From assembly GCA_965219445.1 (NCBI GenBank), contig CBDCNQ010000004.1, positions 32,001-96,000 of the forward strand: 64,000 nt of DNA. The letters run 5' to 3'. Position numbers and translations under genes: made by a program. Within the stretch, counting starts at the first letter, position 1. The number at the start of each line of letters is the position of its first letter. The stretch is from Longimicrobiales bacterium (GTDB taxonomy: Bacteria > Gemmatimonadota > Gemmatimonadetes > Longimicrobiales > Gaopeijiaceae). Below are positions 18,578 through 27,183 of the stretch, piece by piece. Below the pieces are notes generated by a model. It saw only the letters and a program-made list of their open reading frames with translations. It was not told the origin of the DNA and made no database searches.

Positions 18578-19594
18578 CTATCGGCTCGGAGTTGGGAAAC
18601 GAGCAATCCTGTCGCCGCCGGCGACGCCACCGACCCATATCTCGGCCCCGACCTGAATGGCGACGGTGCCAAGTATCAGGAGGTCATTCGAAGGGTAGCG
18701 GACTATTTCACTGGCCGTGAGGCTCTGCAGAGAAACCTGCGCAACCCGCGACGTCACCCCGTCGCACTGCCTCTGCCTGATGCATTCCCCGATGGCCGCC
18801 CGCGTTGGCCCGACATGACCGGCGGCAAACAACGTCTCGCCTGGGCCCCATCGGACGTTGTCGATATGAAACCCGACCTCCACGGCGTCTGTCTGGACCG
18901 GTGTACGTCCACGTGACAAGCGGATCAACGACTGGCTTCCATAGCCACCGACATAAAACCACCGACCGTCTCGAGAGATCTCCAGTCCGTTCGGACCGAT
19001 GCCCTCGCTGCCGGGCACCCGGCTCCACTCAGCGTCTGTACTCCATTCCCATACATCGCCCGTTCGTGGACTCGTCGCCGCGAAGCCACCCTCCGGAAGA
19101 GCGACCACGGAATTCAGGGCAAGCGCCTCCGGTGCCACGGCGCATCCCACCCAATTCAGGGTGGGGACCGCCCCGCCCAGATCGAGCTCGAAGACTTCGA
19201 TCGCTTCCCGATCCCCGTGGCCAACGACATACAAAGTGTGGCGCCCGTTTTCCCCGGCGCGCAGGTAGAGGCCGTGTGGCCTGAACTGCCTCGACACGGG
19301 GCCCGGGCACGCGCCATAGGTCACGGTGTCGTGTCGAGGTCGTGACGTGATGGTGGGAAAGAGGATGGTCGACGTGTAGTCACGGGTGTCCGCCAGATAG
19401 AGGTGTCCTTCATCGACCATGCTGGAGACGATGACCCAGGGGGACTGGGGGACGGGTGCGAGATCTTCCGGGCTGACCGGTCCACACAGAAACTGGACGT
19501 CGCCATCCGGCTCGCAGTCTTGCGCGTGTGCTGCGGCGGCGACCAGCCACAACATGCCAATCATGAAGGTGCCGATGACCGTCGGTGTCTTCAT
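18578..19594 (-). CDS. Secreted SMP-30/paraoxonase-like beta-propeller
   Basis: SPEDL, PHG, PNGLEIS.DG, DNVRW; signal peptide. Confidence 0.8.
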   Translation of the reverse strand: MKTPTVIGTFMIGMLWLVAAAAHAQDCEPDGDVQFLCGPVSPEDLAPVPQSPWVIVSSMVDEGHLYLADTRDYTSTILFPTITSRPRHDTVTYGACPGPVSRQFRPHGLYLRAGENGRHTLYVVGHGDREAIEVFELDLGGAVPTLNWVGCAVAPEALALNSVVALPEGGFAATSPRTGDVWEWSTDAEWSRVPGSEGIGPNGLEISRDGRWFYVGGYGSQSLIRLSRGRTPVQTDAVEVGFHIDNVRWGPGETLFAAGHVGPTRAAIGECIRQRQCDGVTSRVAQVSLQSLTASEIVRYPSNDLLILGTVAIQVGAEIWVGGVAGGDRIARFPTPSR

Positions 19595-19745
19595 AGCATC
19601 ATCCTCCACCAAGTCCGGTAGTGTCCACCTCATTCTCTCCTGCCCCGGGCAGATCCGCAACTGAGCCGGAGGGCAACACTCGGCTTGCCTCTGACCGTGC
19701 GGGATGCGGGTAGGCAATATGAAAGGGCTGGCGCAAGAGTATGAT

Positions 19746-19930
19746 GAGGACCCGAGGCCAGCTTCGACGATGATCCTACTAATATTCGCCGATTAGGTGC
19801 GTGAGCACCCAGCGCGGCAGCAAGTCAGATACGTCTGGAGCTGGCTCATACTGAGGGGCCTGTGTTAGGCCCGGTTAGGGGCCATAACGGACATTGCCAC
19901 GAGCGTCCTCCTGTCGTGCCTCGGGTCCTC
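19746..19930 (-). ncRNA. Bridge/seek RNA of the IS110 element
   Basis: 13-bp closing IR; two internal-loop stems with segments matching the target flanks and the element end. Confidence 0.78.
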
Positions 19931-19941
19931 CGTTCTTCGTG

Positions 19942-21072
19942 TTATGCGGCCGCCTCGAGCGCGGTCGCCTGTTCGATCTCGAGATCACGCATCACGGCCC
20001 AGATGAAGCCGACGAGCTCACGGGCGGCCGCGACTGCGGCGACCTGCGATGTTTTCCGGTTCGCGATGCGATGGTAGAGCTTGTACAGCCTATGCTGGGC
20101 CTTCCAGGCATGAGCAATCACGCCGGGCGGTTGGCCCGCTTGTCGCTTCTTGAGTTGGGCGCCGACGGCAGGTCGGAGCCTGTAGTGCCAGGCGGCTTGA
20201 ACGAGCACGTGACGACACCGACTGTTGCCGGCCTTGGTGATGGCCCCCCTCCGGCTCTGGTTACCGGAGGAGTGCTCCCTGGGCACGAGCCCGAGATAGG
20301 CCATGAGCTGGCCAGGTCGCTCGAAGCGCCGCCAGTCCCCGACCTCTGAGATCAGGATCATCGCCGAGAGCGTGCTGAGCCCACGGAAGCAGGAGAGTCG
20401 CTGGACCGGGGTCCGATAGGCATCGGAGAACGCGATCTCTTCGATCTGACAATCGAGATCGTCACGGCGACTGACCTTGTAGTCCATGAGCGCCAGATAC
20501 TCGCCGTAGACCGCCCGATCCTCTGGTTCAAGCCGGCCCTGGCGCAAGAGCCGCTCCAGCCACGCTCGATGCTCTTTTCCCCAACGTCCTCCTCGGAAAA
20601 CGAAGCCACGACGACTCAGGAACTTCAGAACGTGATGACGCGAGCGCAGGATCTCACGCTGAAAAGTCTGACGACACCGAACGAGGTCTCTCACTCGCTC
20701 CTCAGCCGGCGAGGGGATGCGGATCGGCACGAGCTCACCGGCCCGGTACAGACGAGCGAGCATGATGGCATCCCTCCGATCGTGCTTGCGCTGCTCGCCC
20801 GGACGAATCGGGGTCATGGAAGGTGCGATGATCTCGCAGCCATACTCCCACTCGGTGAGCTCGCGGTACAGGACGTATCCAGCTCCGCTGGCCTCGTAGC
20901 ACGTGCGGATTTCACCGCGCCCGGCCCATCGATCGAAGAACCGCTTGAGTTTGCGCAGATCGTTGGGCAGCTTCTGCACAACGGATGGCTCCTTGCTTGC
21001 TCCCTCGAAGACCGCCACGGTGATCGTGTCCTGGTGTACATCCATTCCAACGTAGATCGGTGGCTTTGACAT
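19942..21072 (-). CDS. IS110 transposase/recombinase
   Basis: VGMDVH, CYEASG, KHDRRDA (DEDD); GLVPREHSSG. Confidence 0.96.
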   Translation of the reverse strand: MSKPPIYVGMDVHQDTITVAVFEGASKEPSVVQKLPNDLRKLKRFFDRWAGRGEIRTCYEASGAGYVLYRELTEWEYGCEIIAPSMTPIRPGEQRKHDRRDAIMLARLYRAGELVPIRIPSPAEERVRDLVRCRQTFQREILRSRHHVLKFLSRRGFVFRGGRWGKEHRAWLERLLRQGRLEPEDRAVYGEYLALMDYKVSRRDDLDCQIEEIAFSDAYRTPVQRLSCFRGLSTLSAMILISEVGDWRRFERPGQLMAYLGLVPREHSSGNQSRRGAITKAGNSRCRHVLVQAAWHYRLRPAVGAQLKKRQAGQPPGVIAHAWKAQHRLYKLYHRIANRKTSQVAAVAAARELVGFIWAVMRDLEIEQATALEAAA

Positions 21073-21319
21073 GGGCTGGCTCTCCTTTTCCGCTGCGACC
21101 CTCTGTGTCGCATGTGGCCCTGGTGTGTGAACCCAATCGGTCCGCACTGACCCACGGTAAGCCGATTAGGTCGAGCCAGCCCTTTCATGTCTACTAATAT
21201 GAGGGGGGCTACTCGATGGGATACGTTTGGCACCGTCTGCGATATCGTGCTGGACCCGGCGCTCCTTGCAGGAAACCCAGAGGAGGTTGTGGGGCTTCTT
21301 GAGGAAGGGTAAGCCAAAG

Positions 21320-21517
21320 ATGGACACAATAAAAATGACGGCGATCATCACCTGTCCCGCCTGCGGGACGAGGACTGAGGCTGAGATCTCGGAAGGGGCG
21401 TGCCAATACTTCTGGGACTGCCCGGCTTGCAAGACGGTTCTACGACCGAAGCCGAGGGATTGTTGCGTGTTCTGCTCCTACGCGGACCGCCGCTGCGCGA
21501 CCGCACCGCCGACCTAA
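21320..21517 (+). CDS. GDCCVxC-domain small Cys-rich protein
   Basis: ITCPACG..CQYFWDCPAC..DCCVFCSY. Confidence 0.85.
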   Translation: MDTIKMTAIITCPACGTRTEAEISEGACQYFWDCPACKTVLRPKPRDCCVFCSYADRRCATAPPT

Positions 21518-21640
21518 ACTGTACCACCACCCGCCTCACCGTCTCACTCCAGAACGGCATCGTCGGCTCCCCTGCTCTGTCCGTCTCGACCCCGAACTCC
21601 TCGTGCTCCCGCATCATGCGCAGACACGCATTATTACCGC

Positions 21641-22111
21641 TTAGCTGTATTCCCGCTTAGTTCCTTGGAAATTATCATAAATCGCCCGGTGACGAGCCAA
21701 GCCATACTCGTCCTCACGTCGTTCATACTCCCGGACCCAACTGATCAAGTCCTCGAGCATCTTGTCCTGTTCTTCGGGCGACGTGAATTTGTCGGGTTCC
21801 CACGGACGTTTCCGGCAATTTTCGACACAAGCTGCGACACCAGGGTTTAGAAATCTCAGTTCGGTGCAGTGTGGTAACGCTGCCTCCACGAGTTCGCCAT
21901 AGCATCCTTCAAGCATCCATTCCGAGTGGCCCGATATTAACTGCGCTAAATCGTCGATGCTTTCTTCCAGTGGCCTGCGAACCGCAACGTCTGACCACGC
22001 AATCGAGTCAAGACGCGAAAGTGGTAGATCGCACTCGCGTTGAAGTTCGCGAGCCATCGTCGTCTTACCCGCACCAGCGTTTCCGTAAATAATGATCCGA
22101 CGCTTGCTCAT
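21641..22111 (-). CDS. Adenylate/shikimate kinase-like P-loop protein (FlaR-like)
   Basis: GNAGAGKTT, LDSIAW, WMLEGCY; visibly lower GC. Confidence 0.85.
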   Translation of the reverse strand: MSKRRIIIYGNAGAGKTTMARELQRECDLPLSRLDSIAWSDVAVRRPLEESIDDLAQLISGHSEWMLEGCYGELVEAALPHCTELRFLNPGVAACVENCRKRPWEPDKFTSPEEQDKMLEDLISWVREYERREDEYGLARHRAIYDNFQGTKREYS

Positions 22112-26989: not shown

Positions 26990-27061
26990 AGGCGCCGCCC
27001 GGATTCGAACCGGGGAATAAAGGCTTTGCAGGCCTCTGCCTTACCGCTTGGCTACGGCGCC
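26990..27061 (-). tRNA. tRNA-Cys (GCA)
   Basis: GGCGCCG acceptor, CTGCAAA anticodon loop, GGTTCGAATCC; CCA not encoded. Confidence 0.96.

Positions 27062-27110: not shown

Positions 27111-27183
<73 letters not shown>

Follow-up and report, generated by a model that had tools for sequence, protein, structure and literature searches.

Bridge RNAs, or seekRNAs, were described in 2024 and are under development as programmable DNA-insertion tools. Within the IS110 family, the IS1111 group is defined, in the descriptions we draw on, by subterminal inverted repeats and a long non-coding end downstream of the gene (PMC11187229; PMC11208160), and Durrant et al. report predicted bridge RNAs in the right end of 93.0% of the elements of this group (PMC11208160). 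A promoter at the circle junction is described in one of these accounts (PMC11208160), and a promoter at the joined ends is proposed in the other (PMC11187229). For IS621, the catalytic residues are given as D11, E60, D102, D105, and S241 (PMC11208158). In addition, IS621 is reported to insert at sites of which one arm matches a donor arm of the bridge RNA, in work that combined cell-free reactions with a re-analysis of editing data (Xie et al., bioRxiv 10.64898/2026.08.31.748434).

The window analysed here, by which we mean the whole stretch of 64,000 nucleotides, comes from a Longimicrobiales bacterium and carries on its minus strand a single intact mobile element of the IS110 family. The element measures 1480 bp between its canonical ends, which hold family-wide and were placed through homology to more than 90 complete relatives (Table 1). 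Its copy number in its own genome is one, with one DNA match and one match of the RNA model described below. About 123 nt of non-coding DNA are found upstream of the gene (21195 to 21073), as against 226 nt downstream of it (19941 to 19716). We assign the element to the IS1111 group because its inverted repeats are subterminal and the RNA, with the long non-coding end, lies downstream of the gene; the 14-bp repeats fall within the 7–17 bp expected for this group. The downstream region is very probably the right-end non-coding part of an intact IS1111-group element, containing a predicted two-loop bridge RNA (seekRNA) that guides the DEDD/Tnp recombinase.

Table 1. Features of the element, its predicted RNA, and its junctions. 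Positions are those of the window; the sequences are read on the strand indicated.
Feature	Positions	Strand	Remarks
Insertion sequence	19716..21195	-	Begins A-GTAGAC ahead of the left inverted repeat; finishes ...CCCTTTCATATT
Recombinase gene	19942..21072	-	376 aa; intact ORF; N-terminal DEDD/RuvC-like domain and C-terminal Tnp domain with the GLVPxEHSSG motif
Left subterminal inverted repeat ATGAAAGGGCTGGC	21175..21188	-	14 nt, located 6 nt in from the canonical left end; complementarity to 19719-19732 is 100%
Right subterminal inverted repeat GCCAGCCCTTTCAT	19719..19732	-	Followed by a 3-nt terminal extension, ATT
TTGCGC box	19731..19736	-	Occupies the place of the relatives' TTGACA
Structured non-coding region, predicted bridge RNA/seekRNA	19746..19930	-	185 nt; 12 nt past the stop codon; outer stem enclosing two domains with one internal loop each
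Closing stem, 5' arm GAGGACCCGAGGC	19918..19930	-	13 nt
Closing stem, 3' arm GCCTCGGGTCCTC	19746..19758	-	13 nt; 100% complementary to the 5' arm
Loop 1, 5' side GUGGCAAUGU	19891..19900	-	Putative guide for the right target half; predicted pairing with the top strand of C-A-TTGCC
Loop 1, 3' side GCCCCUCAGUAU	19848..19859	-	Putative guide for the left target half CCCCTC-A, then GUA, the element's first left-end bases (handshake-like)
Loop 2, 5' side GACUUGC	19820..19826	-	Predicted guide for the left-end half of the donor
Loop 2, 3' side AAUAUUAGUA	19777..19786	-	Putative donor guide: last 5 nt of the right end, A, and the first left-end base(s) (circle junction)
TCATATT, left flank	21196..21202	-	Equals the last 7 nt of the element; its ATATT part is the 5-nt excess over the guide-predicted junction
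ATTGCC, right target half for the 5' guide	19713..19718	-	ATT doubles as the element end; 3 nt short of CATATT-A-TTGCC

The recombinase contains the Pfam domains PF01548 (DEDD_Tnp_IS110, N-terminal; 1.7e-12) and PF02371 (Transposase_20, C-terminal; 1.7e-19), and it passes the NCBI model NF033542, 'IS110 family RNA-guided transposase', with 229 bits at a cut-off of 140 and with residues 7-363 covered. Residues D11, E60, D98, D101, and S268/S269, the last two within GLVPREHSSG, which has the form G-x-x-P-x-x-x-x-S-G, are invariant across 11 aligned relatives, and by analogy with IS621 these residues would have the catalytic roles. Similarity to solved structures is weak and limited to the C-terminal part (ISCro4, 6.4e-06; IS621, 3.1e-05), where the SG stretch aligns with that of the ISCro4 transposase.

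The 226-nt stretch downstream of the gene folds with -88 kcal/mol and a z score of -3.48, a value equalled by none of 200 shuffles. The 13-bp closing stem noted in a preliminary description of this DNA is present and also forms the outermost helix of the minimum-free-energy structure; inside it, the internal loop of each domain is closed by a hairpin. For a comparison with relatives, loci were collected by means of the recombinase, 60 from genomes and 80 from metagenomes, mostly of Gemmatimonadota, and in many of them the non-coding region downstream of the gene could be aligned. RNAalifold predicts 39 pairs from 23 of these sequences, 19 of them with compensatory changes. The covariance model R1, built from this alignment, gives 92 matches in 100 sources, 39 in 42, and, in an additional 30 loci of the same order, 29, so that about 150 related loci have this structure immediately after the recombinase gene; in the sets of 100 and 42 sources, every match lies there on the strand of the gene. 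In the window, the model has its sole match at 19746..19930 with 154.4 bits, within the score range of the relatives.

The fold is further supported by the pattern of substitutions in 86 distinct sequences, where 94.7% of the cells are paired, compared with 81.0% in shuffled alignments and at most 44.8% in controls with slid partners. Both sides have changed in 26 of the 39 pairs, and none of 500 shuffles reaches any of these measures. Furthermore, frequent G-U pairs, which would be C-A on the opposite strand, show that the fold fits a transcript of the sense of the gene: U-G is seen at pair 184/276 in 70 sequences and G-U at pair 194/267 in 49. Rfam yields no match at E up to 1 in 19000-22000, and at the gathering score it yields only two tRNAs over the whole window. 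An 11-mer, ACCTAATCGGC, common to the left end and to the RNA, was considered as an extra guide and rejected, since its two copies have the same sense and reversed order and are both conserved motifs in the relatives.

In the window copy, both flank matches recorded in the preliminary description are recovered. GGCAAT at 19898..19893 has the reverse complement ATTGCC, which stands directly after ...CCCTTTCAT at the right end, and CCCCTCA at 19858..19852 recurs, with its sense unchanged, in the left flank CCCCCCTCATATT (21208..21196). Such matches of 6 and 7 nt in a single element are short, as would be expected if the structure were a mere 3' untranslated stabiliser, a terminator, or a protein-binding end, with loop and flank agreeing by chance. 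The relatives make this reading very improbable. They were anchored on their inverted repeats, which gives a common register with an A at position 0. At the right end, the family reads ...CAT-AT(C/T), then A (position 0), then the right flank; on the left, the flank is followed by A(0), six element bases (GAAAAT, GAAGTT, GAAGAT and so on), and the left repeat.

In this register, the reverse complement of the 5' side of loop 1 matches the right flank at positions -1 to +6 across the relatives. Over 104 unique events, the mean agreement of this segment with the cognate right flank is 6.13 of 8, compared with 3.28 for non-cognate flanks, and none of 5000 permutations is as high. The cognate identity at positions +1 to +6 is 0.91, 0.93, 0.89, 0.86, 0.77, and 0.56, the non-cognate values ranging from 0.51 to 0.24. 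The same segment also reads position -1 of the left flank, with T/T in 70 events and C/C in 3. The 3' side of loop 1 agrees with the left flank read in the same sense, from about -4 to 0. Here, 88 unique events give 3.20 of 6 for cognate and 2.42 for non-cognate pairs, again with 0 of 5000 permutations as high, and the identity at -1 to -4 is 0.90, 0.84, 0.52, and 0.43, against non-cognate values of 0.70-0.31; covariation of this guide with the left flank is confined to about four positions. The loop segments and the flanks thus covary across relatives, and their matches are beyond chance. Guide and flank changing together in this way is hard to explain for a stabiliser or terminator, and the same logic is reported as experimentally shown for members of the IS1111 group and of IS110 (PMC11187229; PMC11208160).

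The 3' side of loop 1 does not stop at the flank; it extends into the first three bases of the element (GAA/GAA in 61 events, GAC/GAC in 5, and GTA/GTA in the window), and since it runs into the left-end bases, its full match is only with the recombinant left junction. The segments of loop 2, on the other hand, follow the ends of the element. On its 3' side, the trinucleotide that precedes the A, of which there are five types (a sixth, ACG, is found in loci L180 and L186), is identical to the final 3 nt of the right end in all of 113 relatives, which again argues against an untranslated stabiliser. On its 5' side, the reverse complement matches the first 4-5 left-end bases of the relatives and changes with them, as in CGAAGT/AGAAGTT and AGAATT/AGAAAAT; in the window copy, the corresponding pairing with the left end is weak, at 3 of 7 bases. 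Because the segments of loop 1 track the flanks and those of loop 2 track the ends, we regard loop 1 as target-binding and loop 2 as donor-binding. The loop 2 word ATATTAGTAG (19785..19776) is indeed identical to 21200..21191, as the preliminary description stated; it is not merely the 'element end', as proposed there, and corresponds to a donor guide conserved family-wide that spells the circle junction. It appears contiguous in the left junction of the window only because that junction is off-register.

A few loci depart from this scheme. The register is shifted by one base in L002 and L004 (together with L005 and L006, which have the same guides), L135, and L140, and the 5' guide fits poorly in L041 (1/8), L111 (3/8), and L112 (4/8). 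In the canonical register, the 5' guide of the window copy agrees at 2 of 8 positions; its match ATTGCC sits 3 nt nearer to the element. Occurrence of the same guides at unrelated sites, a possibility raised in the preliminary description, was not observed: L049, which has the 3' guide of the window, also has a similar left flank, and the 5' guide of each relative fits its own right flank. The folding and the covariation of guides with flanks across relatives, proposed there as a check, were both found.

The register also allows the crossover to be placed. Nearly all elements have A at position 0 of both junctions. At position -1, the base agrees with the target in the left junction and with the donor in the right one, and at position +1 it is the other way round, with no mixed pattern. 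From this opposite behaviour at the two junctions, donor and target would need to share a single A only, and sequence comparison suggests a crossover of at most this A, together with the adjacent pyrimidine read by both target guides. A dinucleotide core as in IS621 was considered for this clade and rejected on the same grounds, because a mismatched core would give the mixed pattern that is not seen. Likewise, the 7-bp core implied by the empty site reconstructed in the preliminary description does not agree with the family.

By analogy with ISEc11 and IS621, the region would be transcribed as a two-loop bridge RNA that binds the recombinase; loop 1 would pair with both strands of the target and loop 2 with the joined ends of the excised circle, and strand exchange would occur at the single shared A. 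By the same analogy, gene and RNA would share one transcript, started at a promoter that arises at the circle junction. A box of TTGAC followed by A, G, T, or C is present at the right end in 91 of 94 relatives, in 77 of them 22 nt from the end, and the left-end hexamer of the relatives (GAAAAT or GAAGTT) is located 17 nt beyond the TTGAC-type box. This TTGACA-like box and the 17-nt spacing fit a joined-end promoter for the family. In the window copy, TTGCGC is likely the -35 half of a promoter that is completed only once the ends join. A simple promoter and terminator scan of the minus strand near the RNA region returned nothing.

The guides of the window copy can be read in the register of the family. 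GCCCCUC-A-GUA-U gives the left arm CCCCTC, the A, and the left-end bases GTA, and the reverse complement of GUGGCAAUGU is AC-A-TTGCC-AC. Taken together, the two guides call for CCCCTC-A-TTGCC, from which the junctions CCCCTC-A-GTAGAC and CATATT-A-TTGCC are expected; the uninterrupted cognate site, without a duplication of AT, is CCCCCCTCATTGCC. The junctions present in the window are CCCCCCTC-ATATT-A-GTAGAC, where CCCCCCTC occupies 21208..21201, and CATATT-GCC. Compared with the prediction, they have 5 nt more on the left and 3 nt less on the right, and TCATATT is found at both of them (21202..21196 and 19722..19716). The empty site in the preliminary description (CCCCCC-TCATATT-GCCTA on the minus strand) consequently holds two bases, AT, more than the guides specify, and it is right for this lineage only if AT was duplicated before the insertion.

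To follow this mismatch, which was recorded before the contigs were examined, public contigs of eight runs from two studies were aligned to the locus. Runs X2 and X3, from one sample of one study, have AAT behind 19715 (+ strand), at a depth of 19.7/24.1 in X2 and 12.6/12.6 in X3, in contigs that otherwise agree with the window. A single contig of run X2 is without the 5 nt at 21195 (depth 15/51.5), and in contigs of X3 and X5 the alignment ends at 21195 with five letters unaligned. The junctions of the allele in X2 and X3 are exactly those predicted by the guides, CCCCCCTC-A-GTAGAC on the left and the added AAT on the right. This canonical allele is known from contigs of one sample only (X2, X3, X5), and runs X1, X6, X7, and X8, from the other study, show the window form without any difference. 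The presence of guide-predicted junctions in independent contigs is also difficult to reconcile with chance matches in an untranslated stabiliser. The two alleles occupy the same locus; one SNP (21144) and one 1-nt indel (19877) separate their element copies, and one SNP (19563) their flanks.

Neither a circle junction nor a contig joining across the element, as an uninterrupted site would give, was present in the contigs of the eight runs, which drop rare forms such as the circle. One contig of X7, with 85% likeness, joins 19791 to 21106. This joint was set aside, since it is probably a deletion derivative of another organism.

The total length of the window allele exceeds that of the canonical allele by 2 nt. 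On account of this difference, the idea that mere excision and re-insertion turned either allele into the other was rejected. A single crossover that joins the canonical circle junction (...CCCTT-TCATATT-A-GTAGAC...) to a site CCCCCC-TCATATT-GCC, which is the cognate site with AT duplicated, would give exactly the window allele. We therefore lean, by a little, towards a separate insertion as its origin, in which a hypothetical AT-duplicated empty site, CCCCCCTCATATTGCC, would have received the element through a crossover within the 7 nt, TCATATT, common to this site and to the right end of the element. Such a site would have the wrong spacing for both arms of loop 1, but its left arm would be identical to the donor left arm.

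Alternatively, the window allele could derive from a canonical insertion through later changes at both junctions, with loss of ATT by slippage in ATTATT on the right, and gain of ATATT on the left via re-insertion of a circle beside the resident copy, giving a tandem dimer, and its subsequent resolution. The element and its guides would then be the same as in the reading preferred above, and the history of the junctions alone would differ. The locus is the same in both studies and shows few differences (the SNPs 21144 and 19563 and the indel 19877), as one ancestral insertion would give, and the predicted right junction CAT-ATT-ATT-GCC contains a slippage-prone tandem ATT. We nevertheless consider this history unlikely: it requires at least three unusual events, it offers no reason why their sum should mimic one clean crossover with a site that differs from the cognate one by a tandem AT, and conservative recombination alone is insufficient for the 2-nt difference in total length.

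If the window allele is a separate insertion, one chromosomal site would have received this element in two natural populations and in different registers, once as a full-match product of the target loop and once with the crossover set by the donor-like left arm TCATATT. We put this forward tentatively, as a possible reading of the pair of alleles that we hold at less than even weight. A possible second case is locus L063, of the same subfamily, the left flank of which resembles its own right end (CATATC); among 86 left junctions compared with the element's own right end, one matches at 5/5 positions and two match at 4/5, which supports the idea weakly. If true, this would be the first natural record of a donor-arm ('half-match') insertion, and it would concern the IS1111 group, whose strand-exchange geometry would involve a single shared A and not a dinucleotide core.

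The off-register junctions bear as well on whether this copy can still move. It could be a bridge-RNA element by descent that has become stranded, and several features would fit such a state: besides its junctions, it is the single copy in the genome, it has TTGCGC where relatives have TTGACA, its left-end guide pairs at 3/7 bases, and truncated or internally deleted relatives exist (L049/L169, L058). We judge this quite unlikely, since the ORF has its full length and keeps all invariant residues, with 154 bits the RNA region falls among the scores of the relatives, and a crossover inside the 7-bp repeats would still free the canonical circle. Contigs with at least 97% likeness reach, inside the element, about 2-3 times the depth of the flanks in runs X3 and X5, which hints at further copies in that sample, contig depth being a poor measure. 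In the genome itself, the cognate 12-mer CCCCTCATTGCC has no other exact copy, which fits the single copy of the element; with one mismatch, it occurs 27 times, compared with 14 for the control. Taken together, the protein family, the compensatory structure, the covariation of guides with flanks and ends in more than 100 elements, and the allele with predicted junctions support the view, already put forward in the preliminary description, that this is an intact RNA-guided recombinase system with self-consistent guides.

The preliminary description also suggested looking for an empty allele in relatives. None was found with the left flank in 41 genomes or with the right flank in the 5 genomes of the genus. 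The flanking genes are present in G006 (93-95%) and in G005 (left flank 82%, right flank 69%); the intergenic stretch that adjoins the element is not conserved in relatives, and in G006 the two flanks are located on separate contigs.

For the genome itself, the element is ordinary, being one site-specific insertion sequence in a divergent intergenic region. The system is predicted to be of an already known kind, an IS1111-type bridge RNA or seekRNA that has no Rfam model, in Gemmatimonadota and neighbouring lineages, where it was previously undescribed. The clade has a clear two-loop architecture and supplies about 150 natural triplets of guide, target, and donor from these lineages. It also provides a per-position map of the bases that are read, about 7 in the right arm and about 4-5 in the left arm, in addition to 3 handshake-like ones. 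The single base common to donor and target at the crossover helps to work out how the IS1111 group compares with IS621. The pair of alleles at one locus is a natural test case for off-register or half-match recombination; the two registers are a curiosity.

Among the systems described so far, the present element resembles the IS1111-family seekRNA elements ISEc11, ISPa11, ISKpn4, and ISPst6 (Siddiquee et al. 2024, PMC11187229), with which it shares, as far as their description allows a comparison, the DEDD/Tnp transposase, the subterminal inverted repeats, and the long non-coding region downstream of the gene. The order of the matches also corresponds to that described for the IS1111 seekRNAs, with the match to the top strand on the 5' side, the match to the bottom strand on the 3' side, and an overlap of the two in the target. 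As in the elements of that account, close relatives are naturally re-directed through replaced guide stretches, and a promoter is proposed at the joined ends. In contrast to these elements, the present one resides in Gemmatimonadota, mostly in metagenome-assembled genomes, and its transposase has 376 aa, as against a length of 330-350 aa given there for IS1111-family transposases. Siddiquee et al. do not settle what the second (donor) domain does; in the present clade, this domain covaries with the ends of the element.

The element can also be compared with IS621 (Durrant et al. 2024, PMC11208160; Hiraizumi et al. 2024, PMC11208158). In both cases, one RNA has target- and donor-binding internal loops that each read both strands, and the catalytic D, E, D, D, and S reported for IS621 have counterparts at like positions in the present recombinase. 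A circular intermediate with a junction promoter, as reported for IS621 (PMC11208160), is likewise expected here. Protein similarity is weak (E 3.1e-05, C-terminal part only), and the RNA of IS621 is described as lying upstream of the gene, with the order of the strand matches reversed. Donor and target of IS621 have a CT core, whereas those of the present clade have one shared A. Both systems show a handshake, that is, guide bases that match the partner DNA only after exchange (PMC11208158); these bases extend the right guides in IS621, whereas the handshake-like bases found here extend the guide for the left target into the left end of the element. Finally, the left flank in the window, where the left end is immediately preceded by a copy of the 7 terminal nt of the element's right end, is reminiscent of the half-match insertions reported for IS621 (10.64898/2026.08.31.748434). 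Unlike in IS621, where this behaviour is described from cell-free reactions and editing data, it is suggested here by one natural allele and by L063 as a possible second case.

The insertion element is flanked by two diverging open reading frames of the window, encoding a small Cys-rich protein and a protein of about 340 residues, respectively. The recombinase gene is directed towards the latter.

Coordinates of features at the element, elsewhere in the window and in related loci
Feature	Position	Strand	Remark
Small Cys-rich protein gene	21227-21517	+	contains ...RDCCVFCSY...
Gene for protein of ~340 aa	18578-19717	-	signal-peptide-like start MKTPTVIGTFMIGMLWLVAAAAHA
11-mer, left-end copy	21161-21171	-	ACCTAATCGGC
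11-mer, RNA-region copy	19788-19798	-	ACCTAATCGGC
Recurrent ~100-nt stretch	21523-21623		
Open reading frame	21348-21617	-	start overlapped by recurrent stretch
tRNA gene	26990-27061	-	one of two
tRNA gene	27111-27183	-	one of two
Deleted derivative	L049:1354-1994		same record as L169
First RNA-region copy at L018	L018:180-345		
Second RNA-region copy at L018	L018:2646-2836		

Elsewhere in the window, the stretch of about 100 nucleotides recurs five times in the same genome and is also found in relatives of the genus, with 78-89% identity. It folds no better than shuffled sequences on either strand.

An 11-mer is present twice in the element, once at the left (gene-upstream) end and once in the structured RNA region. 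The 5' untranslated region contains a hairpin, CCTAATCGG/CCGATTGGG, of which the left-end copy makes up one arm. In the relatives, motifs akin to the 11-mer are kept at both locations.

Contigs from two public sequencing runs, X1 and X5, match the RNA region up to a loose end at window position 19745 and then run on into a different right end (...GCACTTTCATATT). The same samples therefore contain a second, related element, similar to that of locus L063.

Among the relatives, the related locus L049 carries a non-autonomous derivative that arose from a close relative by internal deletion and retains both ends (left and right), the last ~90 recombinase codons and an intact RNA region. Its 3' target guide, on the 3' side of loop 1, is identical to that of the window. 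At another related locus, L018, which is 4.1 kb long, the RNA region occurs twice, so this locus holds two adjoining elements.

Most Gemmatimonadaceae relatives are inserted at ...CCT-A-ACG, followed in their right flanks by 5-12 bases and then by a TTCTGCTGC-like sequence (for example, at loci L014, L016, L023, L026, and L121). Judging from these flanks, the usual target of the Gemmatimonadaceae relatives looks like a repeated host sequence.
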